From: an uncultured virus (IMG/VR IMGVR_UViG_3300031519_000014) | Lineage: Duplodnaviria; Heunggongvirae; Uroviricota; Caudoviricetes | Length of the DNA: 64,000 nt | Virus record (IMG/VR): IMGVR_UViG_3300031519_000014 | Strand: one strand, 5' to 3' | Part shown: positions 87-38,885 of the stretch, in pieces | Position numbering within the stretch: position 1 is the first letter of the stretch | How the letters are laid out: each line of letters begins with the position of its first letter | Program-made: the position numbers and the translations under genes | The notes under the pieces: model-generated | Told to the model about the DNA's origin: nothing | The model's database searches: none | Seen by the model: only the letters and a program-made list of their open reading frames with translations

Positions 87-569
87 TTAAAAATCACCGG
101 GAGCGACTTGACAGCAGAGGATACCTTCCGATCTCCACATGTCTACAACTTTATTACGGTCATCAAACACGCAAAGTAAAGAAGCCCACTTTTTCCTCTT
201 AACCCATTGGTTATTTCTATATTCAAACTCCTCTTTGAGCCAATCTCTTTTGAGGCTGTCGTCAGGTTCGTAGTTCGAAACCGGTCTCATGCGTAATATA
301 TCATAAGATATTCCATTATCTTTTAACCAAGACTCAGTAACCTCCTTGGTTTCCTCTCCACGACCAGAAAAGATGGCCATTTTGTAGCCAGCCCTCTGAA
401 GAGCGATGTAGAGCGCAATGCTGTCGCTCATCGGAACATCTAACTTAATATTATCCGGATTAAAGAATACTTTCCAGTCCAGTTTGCCGTTTTCTTTGGC
501 AGCGAGCGATCTTCTTGCCTCTATGTCGGCCAAGGTACCGTCTAAATCAAATATTATCCACTTTTCCAT
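87..569 (-). CDS. HAD-family phosphatase, polynucleotide kinase 3'-phosphatase (PseT C-terminal-like) domain
   Basis: HAD motifs FDLDGT, FSGR and FDDR; C-terminal QVAPGDF typical of phage PNK-phosphatases. Confidence 0.85.
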   Translation of the reverse strand: MEKWIIFDLDGTLADIEARRSLAAKENGKLDWKVFFNPDNIKLDVPMSDSIALYIALQRAGYKMAIFSGRGEETKEVTESWLKDNGISYDILRMRPVSNYEPDDSLKRDWLKEEFEYRNNQWVKRKKWASLLCVFDDRNKVVDMWRSEGILCCQVAPGDF

Positions 570-2671: not shown

Positions 2672-2870
2672 ATTGTTTAGTTTTATTCTTTATTTAATTA
2701 ACAGTCTGCGAAATATAAATCTCTTGTTATTACTGTTCTGTGTTATCTTATACTTGTAATTTATTAATGCCTAGCCTTATCTACGTCACTCCAATACTCT
2801 TACTTGTATATCTCAGTGATAATACTAAGTCACATCATTAGAGTGAACGAGGATACATATAAATCTCTAT

Positions 2871-2898
2871 ATTATACTAATAAATAATAAAAAGTTTA
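2871..2898 (-). promoter_or_regulatory. promoter TAAAC-N16-GTATAAT
   Basis: Member of the recurring motif. Confidence 0.55.
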
Positions 2899-4896: not shown

Positions 4897-5430
4897 TTAT
4901 ACTTTAACTATGCTTATGGTTCCTTCTTTGTGAAACTTTTTGTTATAATATCCTTTTACTTCTATTACGTATGGATAGCTACCAACCGGAGAAAGTTTTC
5001 CACCATATGTCCCATCCCATTGATTGGATTGCTTATTCGATTCGAATACTAATTGACCCCATCGATTATAAATTACCAGATGATATTTTTTTACTCCACG
5101 GCCTAAACCACCAAACGTGTCATTTAAACCATCTCCATTCGGCGTGAAAGCATTTGGTACGTATATGTACATTGACGGCTTAACATCAATGATATTCGAA
5201 AAGCTTATTTCGCTGGTAACTTTGTTTAATGCAGTAACTCGATATTTAATACGAGGATCGTCAATCCCAGGTATGGGATCTCCTGTCTCTAATAGTTGTG
5301 TATTGTTTTCGTTGATATCCATTAACAAATCCCAAGCTGATGGTTTATACCAAACATCATAGATGTTTATTGCTAATAAGCAAAGTAATATTACAAGAAT
5401 CGATTCTCGTTTAGTGCTAAACTTAATCAT
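4897..5430 (-). CDS. membrane-anchored protein with gliding-motility-associated / T9SS type-B C-terminal domain (CHU_C-like)
   Basis: YVPNAFTPNGDGLNDTF, IYNRWGQLVFES, WDGT and GSYPYVI hallmarks; N-terminal hydrophobic segment. Confidence 0.85.
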   Translation of the reverse strand: MIKFSTKRESILVILLCLLAINIYDVWYKPSAWDLLMDINENNTQLLETGDPIPGIDDPRIKYRVTALNKVTSEISFSNIIDVKPSMYIYVPNAFTPNGDGLNDTFGGLGRGVKKYHLVIYNRWGQLVFESNKQSNQWDGTYGGKLSPVGSYPYVIEVKGYYNKKFHKEGTISIVKV

Positions 5431-6667: not shown

Positions 6668-6868
6668 TTATCGTATATATTTAATATAAATAATCGTAAT
6701 GAATATAACACTTGACCATGCAATGAATATAATAAGTACATCAATGAAGCGTGAAATAGCGGCGATTAAGAATAATGAGCTAGAAAATAGAAGTACTTCT
6801 ACTAAGTCTAATCTACGCAGTAAAATTTTAAAGAAAGCTACCACTATTAACTGTTTTTTTACTAGCAT
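6668..6868 (-). CDS. possible small membrane protein
   Basis: Two hydrophobic segments; overlaps the sigma gene 3' end by 41 nt; start uncertain. Confidence 0.35.
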   Translation of the reverse strand: MLVKKQLIVVAFFKILLRRLDLVEVLLFSSSLFLIAAISRFIDVLIIFIAWSSVIFITIIYIKYIR

Positions 6869-7736
6869 TAAATCTTAATTTCCGTATCGCTGACTTGTAC
6901 CTACGCTGTATAGTGGCACTGCTCCTTCCTAGATCCGATGCTATTTTTGAGAATGATTCTGGAATATCTGTATCAAATCCAAGTCTACGCTTAACTATTT
7001 CTCTATTGATGGGTGTAAGTTGATCCAAGTAAGATGCTATTAATTTATTATAATCATCCGATTTAACAATATGATCTGCTCCATCTGGATCGCCATTAAT
7101 TAAATTAACTGGTATAAAGTCACTGTCGTCAGATCCAGTTCCTTCCAAAGGAGATGCTTTTGTATTTGCTCGTATCGAGTCAACAATTGCCTGTTTCTTT
7201 TTAATTTCAACCGATGATGAAGTTAAAACCCCATCGTTATCTTGTTCTAAATACGCTTCTATTAATTCATCTTCAGTTGGGTCGCGACCTAAGTCATTAG
7301 TTAATTCAGATTCAATATGATTCATCTTAGAAATAGAAGTTACTCTATTTTGAGGTAATCGTATTTGGCGAGAATGCTCAGATAGGTATAATAACATGTA
7401 TTTTCTAATATTCCATACTGCATATGATATAAATCTAAATCCAGTAGTGTAGTCAAATGCCCTAGCTGCATCTATTAATCCGGTATTTCCTTCGTTAATT
7501 AGATCTTGGAATTTAGAAGTACTCCCTCCTGAATATTGCTTAGCTACACTTATCACGAATCGAAGATTAGATGCAATTAATTTATTAATTGCGTCATTAT
7601 CTCCCGTTGCTGTTAATTTAGTTACCTCAAGCTCTTCTGCTGGAGTTAATAATGGATATCTATTAACTTCTACCATGTATCTATCAATTCCACTTGAATT
7701 AGGTGTGTATCTTTCGGTAGGTCTAAAATCTCTCAT
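6828..7736 (-). CDS. RNA polymerase sigma-70 factor, RpoD/SigA-like (short Bacteroidota type)
   Basis: Region 1.2 YPLLTPAEE; region 2 NLRFVISVAKQY, DLINEGNTGL, GFRFISYAVW; region 3 IRLPQN, LGRDPT; region 4 HTH. Confidence 0.92.
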   Translation of the reverse strand: MRDFRPTERYTPNSSGIDRYMVEVNRYPLLTPAEELEVTKLTATGDNDAINKLIASNLRFVISVAKQYSGGSTSKFQDLINEGNTGLIDAARAFDYTTGFRFISYAVWNIRKYMLLYLSEHSRQIRLPQNRVTSISKMNHIESELTNDLGRDPTEDELIEAYLEQDNDGVLTSSSVEIKKKQAIVDSIRANTKASPLEGTGSDDSDFIPVNLINGDPDGADHIVKSDDYNKLIASYLDQLTPINREIVKRRLGFDTDIPESFSKIASDLGRSSATIQRRYKSAIRKLRFNASKKTVNSGSFL

Positions 7737-9749: not shown

Positions 9750-9874
9750 TTTGTTTAGTTTAGGGGTTATATATTTATTATACTACTAAATATATTAATA
9801 TTAAAACAATGATGTACTAGGAGCGATCTATCTACTTCTCATGAATACGCGAATAAATAATAAAAACGATAACG

Positions 9875-12452: not shown

Positions 12453-13856
12453 TTAAGATAAGGATTTTGCTGCATTTTCAACTTCCTGTATCTCCTCGAA
12501 TGAATCGGCGGTCTCTTTGTCAGTTCTAATGTATTTGAATACCGGGTGTAACGTTGAATAATTACCTTTACTATCGTGAGATAATCCACAAGATTTCATT
12601 TCAATTATTGCTCCCATTAACGTATCCTGGTTGGCAGTAATATATTTCATGTCTTTCTCCTTGATCCCAGTAGGTTTAGTTACTACTTTACCATCTGATG
12701 ATTCAACCGTAAGAGATGATATAACATGCTCGTTTTTGCTGCCGACAGTCCCGTAGTTGAACCCAACTATCTTCATTGATGTTGCTATCTCAAGTTTCAT
12801 CTTGATTTGCCAGTTAGGCTTACCATCTTTCCAGGTACCATTGTATGTTTTAAGTATAGTTCCCTCTAGTCCTCTATTAAGAGCCTCGACAAAATGTTCC
12901 ATTGCCTCTTTGTAAGTAGTAATGATCTTTTGTTCTACCATTTCAATACCTCCAGCATCATCGTCTTGGTGTTCGATAATGAATGTCATGATACGATGAA
13001 GTCTATCATTGTAAGGTACATCACTCTTCTTAGCTTTGTAATCCTTCAAGTCAATTATATCCCATGCTGTAAATACAATGTTTGCTAGAACTTGATCATA
13101 TGTCATATTGTGACGCTCAAATAAATGTTCCTTGTCTTTCGTTGCAAGTTCTCCGTCTTTTATCTTTTTGGAAATACTGATTGCTGAATTGATTACTCCG
13201 TTACTTTCGTTTCTATCAATTCCGTTTATTGTTAATTCTCCATTAACAACACAATCTTCGTCAAACATTTTAAAGTCATGCATAATCTTCGATCCTGGGA
13301 GATATGTTTCTTCTCCTGACCTTGATTCTAAATAAACGTCTCCGTCTTCTATAATTGCGTTACAATATCTGCCATCCATTTTAATTTGAGAATACGCCAT
13401 TCCACTTGCGATAATATCCCTTGCTAATTTCTCATCAAATGATTTTGCTCCCATATAAGGAGTCTTTTCTATAAGCTTTGGAAATATCTTGTTGATATTG
13501 GAAGTTCCCATTCCTATTTTAAGATCTTTCTCAATTATTCTTTCTAAAACATAAGCATCGTCAGGAGATGATATTTCTAATAATGCCACTAAGTGAGCTA
13601 TTCCTGCAGTTCCTGTAAGTTCTCTGCTACTTAATCGTGATAGTCCCACTTCAATTGCTCCATCTAAATCCCCATTAAGGCCGCTATCAGTTTCATATAT
13701 TGGAAGCTTCTTTATATAATATTTTACTCTTGGACTTTTAGCAGCATACATTACCTTCTTTAAAAGTTCATTATCCTGATATTTTCTAAGGATGTCCATT
13801 TTAGCATTAGAACCAGGTTCTGCTGCAATTTCGTCAAGTATTGTTTTTATATTCAT
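12453..13856 (-). CDS. ATP-dependent DNA ligase (T4 gp30-like)
   Basis: Motif I KMDGRY, NGEL, WDII, EGTILK, KMK; OB fold TLHPVF. Confidence 0.95.
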   Translation of the reverse strand: MNIKTILDEIAAEPGSNAKMDILRKYQDNELLKKVMYAAKSPRVKYYIKKLPIYETDSGLNGDLDGAIEVGLSRLSSRELTGTAGIAHLVALLEISSPDDAYVLERIIEKDLKIGMGTSNINKIFPKLIEKTPYMGAKSFDEKLARDIIASGMAYSQIKMDGRYCNAIIEDGDVYLESRSGEETYLPGSKIMHDFKMFDEDCVVNGELTINGIDRNESNGVINSAISISKKIKDGELATKDKEHLFERHNMTYDQVLANIVFTAWDIIDLKDYKAKKSDVPYNDRLHRIMTFIIEHQDDDAGGIEMVEQKIITTYKEAMEHFVEALNRGLEGTILKTYNGTWKDGKPNWQIKMKLEIATSMKIVGFNYGTVGSKNEHVISSLTVESSDGKVVTKPTGIKEKDMKYITANQDTLMGAIIEMKSCGLSHDSKGNYSTLHPVFKYIRTDKETADSFEEIQEVENAAKSLS

Positions 13857-13887
13857 ATGGTTATTATACTAAAAAACATGATAAAAT

Positions 13888-13924
13888 AAAAACCCCGAAG
13901 GTAGCGTTACTTTCGGGGTTTTTT
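13888..13924. terminator. intrinsic terminator hairpin containing AAGGTAGCG
   Basis: AAAAACCCCGAAGGTA-GCGT-TACTTTCGGGGTTTTTT. Confidence 0.85.
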
Positions 13925-13952
13925 CTATAGTGTAACTATAGACGGTCCTGAG
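13898..13952. other. permuted 23S rRNA H69-H71-like sequence element
   Basis: AAGGTAGCG (13898-13906) and GTAACTATAgACGGTCCT (13932-13949) match the conserved 23S sequence GTAACTATAACGGTCCT|AAGGTAGCG. Confidence 0.7.
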
Positions 13953-13963
13953 TCCGTTATATT

Positions 13964-14620
13964 TTAATGTTTGTTTATTACTATAAATGCGCTTGACATC
14001 TCATCGTCTGTAATACTAAGATGTTTAATCGACCCTGCTTCTTTAGCGGATTTAAGCTCAGATGTAAATTCGTACCATTTATCTTCAGGTTCATCATTAT
14101 CTGAAAAAGAATCTACATATATTGCATATATAGTATCTGTTAAATTTACAACTCCACTATGTAATGCAGTTAATAACTTAGCAAATAACCAAGATTCACC
14201 TTGGTAATATTGATTTTCTTCTGATGTTAATTCAGAATCTGAATTTATATGGTCAATCACTGGATCTAAATCACTAACCTTTTTACTTAATATAAACGAC
14301 TCAATTGCATTTTTAAGTTCTGGGGTTTTATCAAAATCATCTCCGTTAGTAATAATTGTATAGCTAATATGATCATAGTTGCGATTTACCTCTTTTAAAA
14401 AATCTAATATAGGCACCCCGTTTGTTCCATATGCATAATCATCTAAATTATTTAATTCAGTAAGTGTACGTTTCGTATTTGGTCCTATTCCAAGTGTGTC
14501 TAATACTTCCTCGTATCCATCATCTAAATCACTAAAATCGTATCCGCTAAGATCGATGTCATCTAACTCATCTGATTCGTTTAGTCGTTTCCATTCATTA
14601 AAGTTTTGTATCTTAATCAT
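13964..14620 (-). CDS. acidic putative head-packaged protein
   Basis: N-terminus MIKIQNFNEWKRLNES. Confidence 0.7.
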   Translation of the reverse strand: MIKIQNFNEWKRLNESDELDDIDLSGYDFSDLDDGYEEVLDTLGIGPNTKRTLTELNNLDDYAYGTNGVPILDFLKEVNRNYDHISYTIITNGDDFDKTPELKNAIESFILSKKVSDLDPVIDHINSDSELTSEENQYYQGESWLFAKLLTALHSGVVNLTDTIYAIYVDSFSDNDEPEDKWYEFTSELKSAKEAGSIKHLSITDDEMSSAFIVINKH

Positions 14621-14627
14621 ATCTATT

Positions 14628-15062
14628 TTAAATTTTTAATGTTATATTTGATCCATTTGTATTAGATTCTACCCATCCGGATTTTAACTCTACTGCGTAC
14701 ATCGCAGGTTTATCGCTTTTATAAATTTGAAGTTCTGAATCTTGTTCTCCGTCGTATGGATCCATTGTATGGTGGTTGATATAATTAAATTTATCGTCAA
14801 AGAATATGATATCTAGTGCAAATGATACGTTTTTCATCCAGAATCCTAAATCATCTGGCATTTCATATACAAATAACATTCCATCGTTGTTAATGGGCTC
14901 ATCTGATCCCATGTATCCTTTTGCTTTTGTATCTTCATTAGCTGCCACTTTTAGTGTAACCTTGGTTCCTGAAATAGTAGCAACTATTTCTTTACTATCT
15001 ATTGCGTTTTTCCTACAGTATCCTTCGAATAATGGAAAATGTGTCGTTCTTTTATGTTGCAT
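14628..15062 (-). CDS. DUF192 family protein
   Basis: KGYMG, GMLFVY, FWMKNVSFALDIIFFD, YAVELKSG. Confidence 0.9.
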   Translation of the reverse strand: MQHKRTTHFPLFEGYCRKNAIDSKEIVATISGTKVTLKVAANEDTKAKGYMGSDEPINNDGMLFVYEMPDDLGFWMKNVSFALDIIFFDDKFNYINHHTMDPYDGEQDSELQIYKSDKPAMYAVELKSGWVESNTNGSNITLKI

Positions 15063-16859: not shown

Positions 16860-16880
16860 AATAATTGTTTATTTTGAATT

Positions 16881-16908
16881 ATTATACTAGGGGAAGTAAG
16901 AAGGTTTT
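16881..16908 (-). promoter_or_regulatory. promoter AAAAC-N16-GTATAAT
   Basis: Member of the recurring motif. Confidence 0.7.
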
Positions 16909-18492: not shown

Positions 18493-18963
18493 TTATCTTA
18501 CTCGATCTAGTATTATCAACTGTGATTTATGTATCTTAGGATACGCATCTTCGATTTTTACAAAACCTGCCCAATCTATTTCCTCTAGTTGTAATTTCTC
18601 TTTATCTATTTTATGACCTATCATTCCTATGTCAGAAGGATCGTCTATTCTCATAATGAAGTATATCATTTGGGAATCAATCGAGCCATCTTTTTTGAAA
18701 CGAGGTACAGTGTGTGGCTCTGAATCTAGCTTCGACGGGTCCACCTCTATTCCGGTTTCCTCGAATACTTCGCGAATTGCTGCGTCTAACGGATCTTCTC
18801 CTACTTTGATTCCTCCTTTTGGAATTCCAAGTGCACTATGTTGCCAACTTGCGTTAGTTGGGTGAACTAGTAAAAGCTTACCGTCCCATACAAATGCGAT
18901 ACCTGCTACATTTTTGGTATCCTCTGATTCATTTATAAATTTATTGAAATTCTTGACCTTCAT
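18493..18963 (-). CDS. Nudix hydrolase
   Basis: Nudix box PKGGIKVGEDPLDAAIREVFEETGI. Confidence 0.92.
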   Translation of the reverse strand: MKVKNFNKFINESEDTKNVAGIAFVWDGKLLLVHPTNASWQHSALGIPKGGIKVGEDPLDAAIREVFEETGIEVDPSKLDSEPHTVPRFKKDGSIDSQMIYFIMRIDDPSDIGMIGHKIDKEKLQLEEIDWAGFVKIEDAYPKIHKSQLIILDRVR

Positions 18964-19135
18964 CCTTTTTTCTGTTATATACTGCTTTATTTAATTCTTC
19001 TCTTTTCTTAACTGACTTCTTCTTAAATCGTTTTCGTTCTCGAAGTTCTTGATGTACTCCTATATCCTTAAGTTTTTTACGGTACGATTTAAGAGCATAT
19101 TCTATTTTATTTCCTTTAACCTTTACTATAATCAT
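18941..19135 (-). CDS. rpsU: 30S ribosomal protein bS21
   Basis: IEYALKSYRKK...G...ELRERKRFKKKSVKKR...KAVY pattern. Confidence 0.88.
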   Translation of the reverse strand: MIIVKVKGNKIEYALKSYRKKLKDIGVHQELRERKRFKKKSVKKREELNKAVYNRKKDEGQEFQ

Positions 19136-25005: not shown

Positions 25006-25075
25006 ATAAAGGACTTTCACCTTTCCTGATTAGCTGTAACCCACTAATCTTATTTGATCATTCAATCAAACCGTG

Positions 25076-25430
25076 TGGAGATGGAGGGATTCGAACCCTC
25101 GTCCATTAAACATCGACAATAGATTTTATTACAGCATAGGATAATCGTTTTCTAACAATTCCAAAATAGAGAGTTCCCTTATTACTGTTCGGTTTACTCA
25201 TAACTAATCTTCAGGTTTTCAATTTCACGCGTGAGAAATAGAAATACTAACTAAACTGTTACTTCCTTTTACATCTAATCAACCTACAAGTATAATCAGT
25301 TACATGATGTGCACTACTTACCTATTAGGCAGCCATTGCGTACTCAGCGTTGTCGGCTAAGATTGATGTAGGTCATCACCCGTTGCTGAATCTAAAGCTT
25401 CTCGAATAATGTCAAAGCCATGTCATCCCC
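25076..25430 (-). ncRNA. ssrA: tmRNA
   Basis: 5' GGGGATG pairs with 3' CATCTCC-A (G3:U70 Ala identity); T arm GAGGG-TTCGAAT-CCCTC; tag frame 25357-25325 ADNAEYAMAA followed by TAA TAG. Confidence 0.93.
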
Positions 25431-26601: not shown

Positions 26602-26617
26602 AATAATATTATACTAA

Positions 26618-37764: not shown

Positions 37765-38244
37765 TTATGCGGATACAAGACCTAATATCGTAGTATAAAC
37801 TCCTATTCCTGCTATCGTTGAAGTTATAAGTGAGTATACAATGTCGTATATGAATTTAGATTTATTGTATTTTCTAAAATCATAACTTATCTTAACAACG
37901 TATCCATAAAATTCGGTAGTTGCCACGCGTTCATATTGGGCCTCAACAACATCAAGAATTAATTCCTCTTGTAAAAAATTAGTATACTTCTTCATTTTTT
38001 CTGATATGAATTTAAGCTCAACTGATTCTTGTGAATCTTCAGTATACATTAACAGTTCTGGATTTAAATTAATACCTATGAACATGTTGTCCTTCTCTTT
38101 TTTAATTCCTATTGATACTAGCTTACCGTCCTCTTGGAGTTCAATAAGCACTCGCTTATATCTATTAAAATGATTAAATTCAACAAGTGTTTCCTTTAAT
38201 GATTTATATATTAGCTGCGGGTATATATAATCTTTTATTTTCAT
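37765..38244 (-). CDS. hypothetical protein with C-terminal TM
   Basis: 4-nt overlap with the ECF sigma gene. Confidence 0.7.
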   Translation of the reverse strand: MKIKDYIYPQLIYKSLKETLVEFNHFNRYKRVLIELQEDGKLVSIGIKKEKDNMFIGINLNPELLMYTEDSQESVELKFISEKMKKYTNFLQEELILDVVEAQYERVATTEFYGYVVKISYDFRKYNKSKFIYDIVYSLITSTIAGIGVYTTILGLVSA

Positions 38245-38885
38245 ATGTCAAATACGTGGTTTAATGTTTCTCTAAACTCTGGATTTTTTTCTAATACTCT
38301 TTCTTTGATGTCTGCTCTAATCTTTCTAAGTTTAGTTTTTACAGTGTTTTCATTTATTGAATATCTATCTGCAATACATTTGACCTTATCTTTCTTGATC
38401 ATTTTATCTATTGCGATGCTCTGTAGTAAAGTATCATCTATGTGACGGATCTCATCTATAGTCATATCGTGCATTTTTTTAAATTCTAATTCAAAATCCT
38501 CGAATGTTTCAAATTCTGGAGATTCCCCATGAGTTGATGCATATTCTCCTTCGACTCCGTCATATGCATACATTTTATTTCTTTTTTTCATATGTAGATA
38601 ATATAATGTCTCATTTCTAGCTATTGTATATATCCAAGTGGTAAATCTACCTTTGTCAAAATCAAACAGCGGGATATTATTAAATATCTTCTTTAGTGTC
38701 CATTGTAATGCTTCGTCAGTATCGTCATTATTCTTACAAAACTTCCAAACGTGATACCTAAGTTTAGGATAAATTAGAGTAGCTAATTCGTTTCTTTCAC
38801 GCTCTGTAATTATGTCGTCTTTAAATTTTAGTGATATTTCCTGAATTCTGTCATTAATAATCCTGTTTGTTTTCTCAAATCCCAT
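38241..38885 (-). CDS. ECF-like sigma-70 factor
   Basis: Region 2 D..DEALQ...FDFDKGRFTTWIYTIARN; region 4 IADRYSINENTVKTKLRKIR. Confidence 0.85.
   Translation of the reverse strand: MGFEKTNRIINDRIQEISLKFKDDIITERERNELATLIYPKLRYHVWKFCKNNDDTDEALQWTLKKIFNNIPLFDFDKGRFTTWIYTIARNETLYYLHMKKRNKMYAYDGVEGEYASTHGESPEFETFEDFELEFKKMHDMTIDEIRHIDDTLLQSIAIDKMIKKDKVKCIADRYSINENTVKTKLRKIRADIKERVLEKNPEFRETLNHVFDI

Follow-up and report, generated by a model that had tools for sequence, protein, structure and literature searches.

Antisense RNAs such as CopA (pairing with CopT), RNA I (with RNA II) and OxyS (with fhlA, through a two-loop contact) present their pairing sequences in hairpin loops, and the interaction starts between loops. 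Base-pairing RNAs act on messages, the targets in these examples being plasmid or cellular mRNAs or primer RNAs, and we know of no loop-presenting antisense RNA that targets rRNA. RNA complementarity to conserved rRNA is found in Shine-Dalgarno pairing, in the pairing of the calicivirus TURBS with 18S rRNA, which acts beside the stop codon, and in snoRNA guides; these either address the rRNA of the small subunit or, in eukaryotes and archaea, direct modification together with protein partners. In the large subunit, H69 forms a central bridge between the ribosomal subunits, with a role in decoding, termination and recycling. Base-pairing small RNAs that arise from mRNA 3' ends and share the terminator of the mRNA have reportedly been reviewed by Miyakoshi, Chao and Vogel in 2015. 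A synthetic PNA against H69 is described in PMC12828698, with reference to Kulik et al. 2017, as blocking translation and growth of E. coli, which indicates that antisense action at H69 is feasible.

The element described here is found in the window, i.e. the whole stretch of 64,000 nucleotides of viral DNA that was analyzed. Like the small RNAs derived from 3' ends, it would close a coding transcript, finishes in the Rho-independent terminator of the gene and carries a short conserved pairing sequence in or near hairpins; unlike these, it is complementary to 23S rRNA instead of mRNA, has its words in two hairpin loops, and belongs to a family carried by phages of very different kinds. The display of short complementary sequences in hairpin loops is shared with the loop-presenting antisense RNAs, and as the two loops would address neighboring 23S segments, the seemingly permuted word order is explained. 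The anti-H69 PNA has the same target region, but is artificial, short and without hairpin presentation or natural context. Unlike the Shine-Dalgarno, TURBS and snoRNA cases, the presumed target is H69-H71 of the large subunit and no partner protein is evident, and unlike plain Rho-independent terminators, the loop is conserved family-wide and preceded by two conserved hairpins. Large-subunit rRNA is a new class of presumed target; neither literature searches nor Rfam 15 yielded a natural RNA of bacteria or phages that is described as base-pairing to the functional 23S core.

The element is contained in a 107-nt gap between two genes that are, as the sequence-only reading had claimed, both on the minus strand (Table 1). 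The three inverted repeats that it had named are present and fold as hairpins, and both strands of the element fold into three hairpins (fold z -5.2 to -6.0). The third hairpin of the window reads ACGCUAC followed by U5AU4, which fits the loop core CGCUA(C/U) and U-run of the family described below, and it shows the features of a Rho-independent terminator, namely a stem-loop rich in G+C that runs directly into U residues on the strand that is transcribed. The upstream gene has its stop codon at 13964-13966, 4 nt ahead of the match to the family model. No variation was found within the element among contigs from four DNA runs. One variant contig has the 5' end of the ligase gene in common with the window (15 differences in 124 nt) and diverges exactly at the ligase start codon, at 13857; it is thus without the element, as are related phages in the same kind of sample.

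Table 1. Positions of the RNA element, its parts, its neighbors and other features named in the text, numbered along the window unless another record is given.
Feature	Position	Strand	Description
Intergenic gap	13857..13963		107 nt
Whole RNA element	13888..13959	-	72 nt; hairpin A, hairpin B, A-tract, terminator hairpin, U-run
Hairpin A	13942..13957	-	stem ACGG/CCGU, 8-nt loop ACUCAGGA
Hairpin B	13925..13941	-	CUAUAGU-UAC-ACUAUAG
Intrinsic terminator	13883..13924	-	A6 tract, 11-pair stem with one mismatch, apical GUA-ACGC-UAC, U5AU4
Long 23S-like word GTAACTATAGACGGTCCT	13932..13949	+	23S 1910-1926 plus one inserted base
Short 23S-like word AAGGTAGCG	13898..13906	+	23S 1927-1935
Promoter-like box TAGTATAATA	13862..13871	-	5 nt ahead of the ligase ATG; conserved in ligase relatives
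Other exact copies of TAGTATAATA	2870..2879, 9776..9785, 16880..16889, 26607..26616	-
ATP-dependent DNA ligase gene	12453..13856	-	downstream of the element; PF01068, E 6e-14
218-aa acidic ORF	13964..14620	-	lineage-specific, between the DUF192 gene and the element
DUF192 gene	14628..15062	-	upstream of the 218-aa ORF
Polynucleotide kinase-phosphatase domain	87..569		PNKP HAD domain, E 3e-24
ORF with CHU_C domain	4897..5430		type IX secretion signal domain, E 6e-20
Sigma-70-type protein gene	6828..7736
bS21 gene	18941..19135
tmRNA gene	25073..25430
Sigma-70-type protein gene	38241..38885
RNA-like stretch of Vibrio phage PWH3a-P1	536..628 of L392; ~80880..80975 of NC_020863.1		unannotated

The sequence-only reading had looked for support to a recurrence of the element in relatives, and to compensatory changes in its stems, and both were observed. 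By searching with the ligase protein, we obtained 46 viral and 42 metagenomic loci, with 17 distinct contigs carrying a ligase at least 61% identical to that of the window. Five of the 17 have the element at the syntenic site ahead of the ligase (G001, L007, L009, L059 and L096), G001 being the record nearest to the window with 97% identity across the stretch, and the other 12 have a plain terminator or nothing at the site. The element is 81-96% identical between variants, compared to 66-76% over the initial 300 nt of the ligase gene, and all three hairpins are kept in all four ligase-lineage variants. The ACGG/CCGU stem of hairpin A is identical between the window and its relatives, and the loop, ACUUAGGA in the relatives, differs by a single change in the window (ACUCAGGA); in L007, L096 and L009 it reads CUUAGGA. 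Hairpin B of the window has one U-A pair more than that of the same three relatives, and the inserted base that breaks the 23S match of the window is thus one half of a compensatory base-pair insertion. Searches with lineage-specific patterns for further relatives returned only known contigs or chance matches in coding sequence.

The permuted pattern, i.e. GTAGCGA, a gap of 15-45 and RACGGTCCTAAG, was found in at least 120 viral contigs (a raw count from a collection of unstated size), and the lengths of the matches listed cluster at 44-51 and 56-64 nt. Within the 49-51-nt class, ten members from other contigs, none of the window's lineage, share the build of the window element, and from these ten only we constructed a covariance model, R1. 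In the ten-member alignment 93.3% of the cells are paired, and 9 out of 18 pairs are changed on both sides, which none of 500 shuffles equaled. R1 matches the window in full length at 13888-13959 on the minus strand (56 bits, E 5.3e-12, model positions 1-69 of 69), and its next match in the window scores 18.3 bits and falls on the opposite strand of this terminator. Among the relatives, L007, L096 and L009 score 60.9, 58.9 and 41.1 bits, respectively, and out of 79 of the 80 loci taken from the contigs with the permuted pattern (L293, which is the contig of L007, was omitted), 30 match at E<=1e-3. The window element is a full-length, if somewhat degraded, member of a large phage RNA family.

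Most members were found via patterns derived from 23S rRNA, so that the 23S likeness of the family is partly there by construction; free of this bias are the four variants found by synteny and the third loop in the set retrieved with hairpin A only. A scan with the 17-mer of hairpin A alone gave 29 loci with 22 distinct sequences, and in all 22 a third hairpin is preceded by a variable middle one; the loop of the third hairpin, which is outside the query, reads CGCUAC in 15, CGCUAU in six and CGCUCC in one. Variants of the middle hairpin in the family, e.g. GUAG..CUAC, AUAGC..GCUAU and CUUGC..GCAAG, keep the pairing. A same-strand ORF ends between -3 and +30 nt before the element in 7 out of 10 members, and another begins 22-75 nt past it, also in 7 out of 10, which together suggest an intergenic RNA that makes up the last part of the upstream message.

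The family had no match in Rfam 15, and no description of it was found in full-text literature searches. At the Rfam 15 gathering threshold the tmRNA was the only hit in the window, and a permissive scan of the element returned sub-threshold terminator-like matches only. R1 had no match in the cultured Cellulophaga phage phi4:1, and a blastn search with a family member gave one weak match among the GenBank phages. The 56-64-nt sister class (38 loci among the matches listed, L242-L321) has the same two 23S-like words, and 18 of these 38 loci also have a word of 10-11 nt identical to E. coli 16S 517-528, in the 530-loop region, in the same orientation.

Read on the strand of the RNA, 23S 1923-1929 has its complement in ACUUAGGA, which is the hairpin A loop, and 1918-1922 in the 3' arm of that hairpin; the complement of 1929-1936 is the core of the loop of the terminator hairpin, the third one. 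Over 26 distinct members, i.e. the 22 from the hairpin A scan and the four ligase-lineage variants, pairing is possible opposite 1931-1936 in at least 25, and either C or U, both frequent, stands opposite G1929 in 25 and opposite G1930 in all 26. The anchor expression behind these counts permitted only A or C opposite 1931 and C or T opposite 1930, but all 26 sequences matched it. In the lineage of the window, the 5' arm and loop of hairpin B carry the complement on, across the H69 loop, to 1910, and the inferred ancestor is complementary at 19 out of 20 positions. The window terminator has the loop ACGC, to which the 3' arm adds CCUU, so that CGCUACCUU complements 23S 1927-1935; the mismatches of the window are a C opposite A1927 in loop A and a one-base bulge from the pair insertion in hairpin B.

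The reading that we prefer, with a probability of roughly 55%, is that a phage transcript ends in an RNA which forms base pairs with the H69-H71 junction of the host's 23S rRNA, 23S rRNA being the target that we infer. An antisense RNA in the minus-strand 3' UTR, as proposed in the sequence-only reading, is favored by the family membership, the polarity of the terminator, the loops that complement adjacent 23S stretches and the C or U opposite two G residues. Certain observations count against pairing with 23S rRNA. Most of the complementary bases of the window are situated in stems, loop A has a C.A mismatch, hairpin B has a bulge and the terminator loop has only 4 nt. Furthermore, 23S 1920-1937 is largely structured in mature ribosomes, a phage requires working ribosomes, and the element is absent from phi4:1 and from 12 of the 17 ligase relatives. 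RNA.duplexfold, applied to the element and the whole 23S rRNA, gave z values of -0.9 to 0.1 against 60 mononucleotide shuffles, which speak neither for nor against pairing because long interior loops are allowed.

Under pairing with 23S rRNA, the RNA would be read from the minus strand, begin at or just past the upstream stop codon and end at its own terminator, and would thereby be the last part of the upstream transcript; it may also accumulate as a stable piece, about 75 nt long. The two exposed loops would first touch the H69-H70 junction, in nascent 23S rRNA or in free 50S subunits, and pairing would then spread into H69. Candidate outcomes, all speculative, are that H69 folding or subunit joining is blocked, that the double-stranded RNA becomes a substrate or cut site, or that 50S subunits are held near the stop codon or the end of the message. 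A wider claim, which we put forward tentatively and at slightly less than even odds, is that phages of many hosts carry RNAs that pair with the H69-H71 junction (with 16S 530-loop words in the sister class) and act on ribosome assembly, subunit joining or recycling, here as part of a translation-takeover kit with bS21 and tmRNA, and that these would be the first natural antisense RNAs against bacterial rRNA. If the family targets the 23S site, it represents a new layer of host takeover and a ready-made natural design for rRNA-directed antisense agents.

Unlikely, but deserving serious consideration, is that the conserved loops serve another partner, i.e. a phage or host protein or another RNA with the same words, and that the 23S complementarity is incidental. 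Loop sequences as invariant as these are often seen in protein sites, and the position right at stop codons, in the ligase lineage as well as in the 7 out of 10 members mentioned above, could reflect handling of the 3' end in cis. An incidental resemblance is, however, hard to reconcile with two loops whose combined complement spans about 14-20 consecutive bases of a single, universally conserved stretch of rRNA, and the variation between C and U opposite G1929 and G1930 is the pattern that RNA pairing would be expected to give. Neither word has a second copy in the 64-kb window, and the genes upstream of the element are very different among the phages of the family, as fits a universal target.

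How far the 23S likeness may be due to chance bears on a further alternative, namely that the element is an ordinary terminator with two accessory 3'-end hairpins and that its resemblance to 23S rRNA is a product of chance or neutral inheritance. The description of the likeness in the sequence-only reading was accurate. GTAACTATAGACGGTCCT and AAGGTAGCG are found on the plus strand, in one copy each, and the 26-mer GTAACTATAACGGTCCTAAGGTAGCG is E. coli 23S 1910-1935 (rrlH, L005), relative to which the two halves are swapped and one base is inserted in the window. The same 26-mer occurs exactly in the 23S genes of the Flavobacteriaceae Xanthomarina, Flagellimonas, Tamlana and Flavobacterium (L103, L123, L163 and L176). 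Within the window, the best match to E. coli 23S rRNA has 17 matching positions and one edit, at the end of a smooth tail (three loci with 16 matches, six with 15 and ten with 14), and three other independent loci with 17 matches were found in 324 kb of related phage DNA against the 23S rRNA of Flagellimonas. About 0.6 such matches are therefore expected per window, placing the long word at about chance level. For the adjacent 9-mer to lie within 60 nt, P is between about 0.001 (strict adjacency) and 0.03 (loose criteria). On statistics from the window only, the resemblance is probably coincidental.

The same holds to some extent for the closest relatives. L007 and L096 have an ungapped 18/19 match to 23S 1911-1929, with GTAGCGA (1930-1936) in the terminator loop, and as this is the single match at 18/19 in 361 kb of related phage DNA, with nine at 17/19 and 72 at 16/19, it is, taken alone, compatible with the tail of chance matches. 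An ordinary terminator would also agree with the canonical form of the third hairpin, with the promoter-like box that follows it and with the plain terminators at the same place in other ligase relatives. What makes this alternative rather improbable is the family: the two words recur in the same order and structural positions in the at least 120 contigs, the third-loop motif is present in 22 out of 22 distinct sequences from the hairpin A search, and conservation is higher in the element than in the coding DNA beside it. A 23S likeness conserved across the whole family exceeds chance and overturns the conclusion drawn from the window alone.

A control word from elsewhere in 23S rRNA also gave far fewer islands of likeness. 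The exact 18-mer 23S 1918-1935 was found in 17 viral contigs (L223-L239), two of them with real 23S genes and 15 with islands outside rRNA, which comprise ten distinct sequences of 19-41 nt, all but one diverging right past A1936. The control 18-mer, from 23S 2497, had two matches, i.e. one real 23S gene and one 23-nt island (L240 401-423, identical to 23S 2497-2519 and outside any rRNA gene). We count the difference, 15 out of 17 against one out of two, as support for specificity and for pairing with 23S rRNA. In Rfam scans, the contiguous islands gave sub-threshold terminator-like matches only. Several have a GNRA-capped hairpin and another copy of TAGCGA after them.

The strand of the RNA was assessed in the 26 distinct members, 25 of which have a T-run of at least four past the third hairpin, compared to 10 with an A-run of at least four ahead of it. 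This polarity indicates that the RNA corresponds to the strand antisense to 23S rRNA, which in the window is the minus strand, i.e. the sense strand of the genes. The U.G pairs of hairpin B on the minus strand of L096 and L009, which on the other strand would be C.A mismatches, agree with this. Both observations argue against a further proposal of the sequence-only reading, an H69 mimic or decoy for ribosome-directed factors or toxins, for which an RNA from the plus strand would reproduce H69-H71 in the sense orientation. The window terminator has a bidirectional shape, A6 preceding and T6 following it, and the plus strand folds slightly better than the minus strand, but a plus-strand RNA that stopped at the T-run would be without the long word, and all genes within kilobases of the element are on the minus strand. 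Moreover, hairpin B takes up the letters of the H69 loop in its pairs instead of exposing them, and an H69-like stem-loop does not form, so with the polarity also wrong we regard a mimic as very improbable. Some contiguous islands of other phages are 23S-sense on a tRNA strand, which counts in favor of a mimic and against an antisense RNA; three such islands (L225, L237 and L239) are situated 30-120 nt downstream of tRNA-Pro genes.

The proposal that the element is the scar or decoy of an rRNA-specific homing element, i.e. an I-CeuI-type site or captured rDNA fragment, draws on 23S 1910-1935 being a known homing-site region and on the adjoining lineage-specific 218-aa ORF with its flanking repeats of about 10 nt, but is largely refuted, as relatives without this ORF retain the element, structural selection is evident, the site is permuted and interrupted, the rDNA similarity is not extended, and the ORF has no match to an endonuclease family.

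As a recognition sequence for an I-CeuI-type LAGLIDADG enzyme, the site is split, permuted and has an inserted base, and the neighboring ORFs match no nuclease family; this candidate was rejected. A true fragment of 23S rDNA was rejected as well, the halves being permuted and extended collinear similarity lacking. Local alignment to the E. coli and Flagellimonas 23S rRNAs ends at 1909/1910-1929, and no collinear similarity to either was found outside 1910-1936. No LSU rRNA or intron family was found in the window in the Rfam scan at the gathering threshold, and the LSU model had no match in G001.

An RNA-like stretch was also found in cultured T5-like Vibrio phages, where it is unannotated and situated on the gene strand after a small ORF; in the PWH3a-P1 locus L392 this is the minus strand. 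Besides PWH3a-P1, it is present in qdvp001, vB_VpaM_R16F, vB_VibM_10AMN and P018-4. The stretch includes 24 nt antisense to 23S 1907-1930, with two differences that are both G.U-compatible, and GUCGCUACC downstream; at 3.6 bits with R1, it is not a member of the family. We count this related RNA in favor of pairing with 23S rRNA, and the cultured vibriophages, e.g. PWH3a-P1 on Vibrio natriegens, offer a tractable system in which the hypothesis is directly testable.

The phage of the window is related to the Cellulophaga phages phi4:1 and phi17:2. The genes around the element do not constitute the late operon assumed in the sequence-only reading, as the downstream gene encodes an ATP-dependent DNA ligase and the upstream genes are the 218-aa ORF, which belongs to no family, and the DUF192 gene. 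Comparisons of the 218-aa ORF with Pfam, PHROG and PDB sequences gave no match. It is inserted in the lineage of the window only, and its two ends share directly repeated sequence, ACATTAAAA(A)T, of about 10 nt (window 13964-14620 and 14621-14640). In L007, L009 and L096, the TAA stop codon of the DUF192 gene overlaps the first bases of the element.

The box TAGTATAATA has five exact copies in the window, compared to 0.76 expected, and none of 100 shuffles reached five. All copies are on the gene strand, 5-26 nt ahead of a start codon, and the phage encodes two sigma-70-type proteins. The box may be a phage-specific promoter giving near-leaderless messages. Another candidate, a promoter of the phage-RNA-polymerase type in hairpin B, which we had presumed from a resemblance, was rejected; the motif is not recurrent, as 37 loose matches were found where 33 are expected.

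The CHU_C type IX secretion signal domain in one ORF fits a host among the Bacteroidota. Furthermore, the bS21 and tmRNA genes that the sequence-only reading had placed in the window were both confirmed, and together with the ligase and the polynucleotide kinase-phosphatase domain they make up a notable set of nucleic-acid repair and translation functions in one window.
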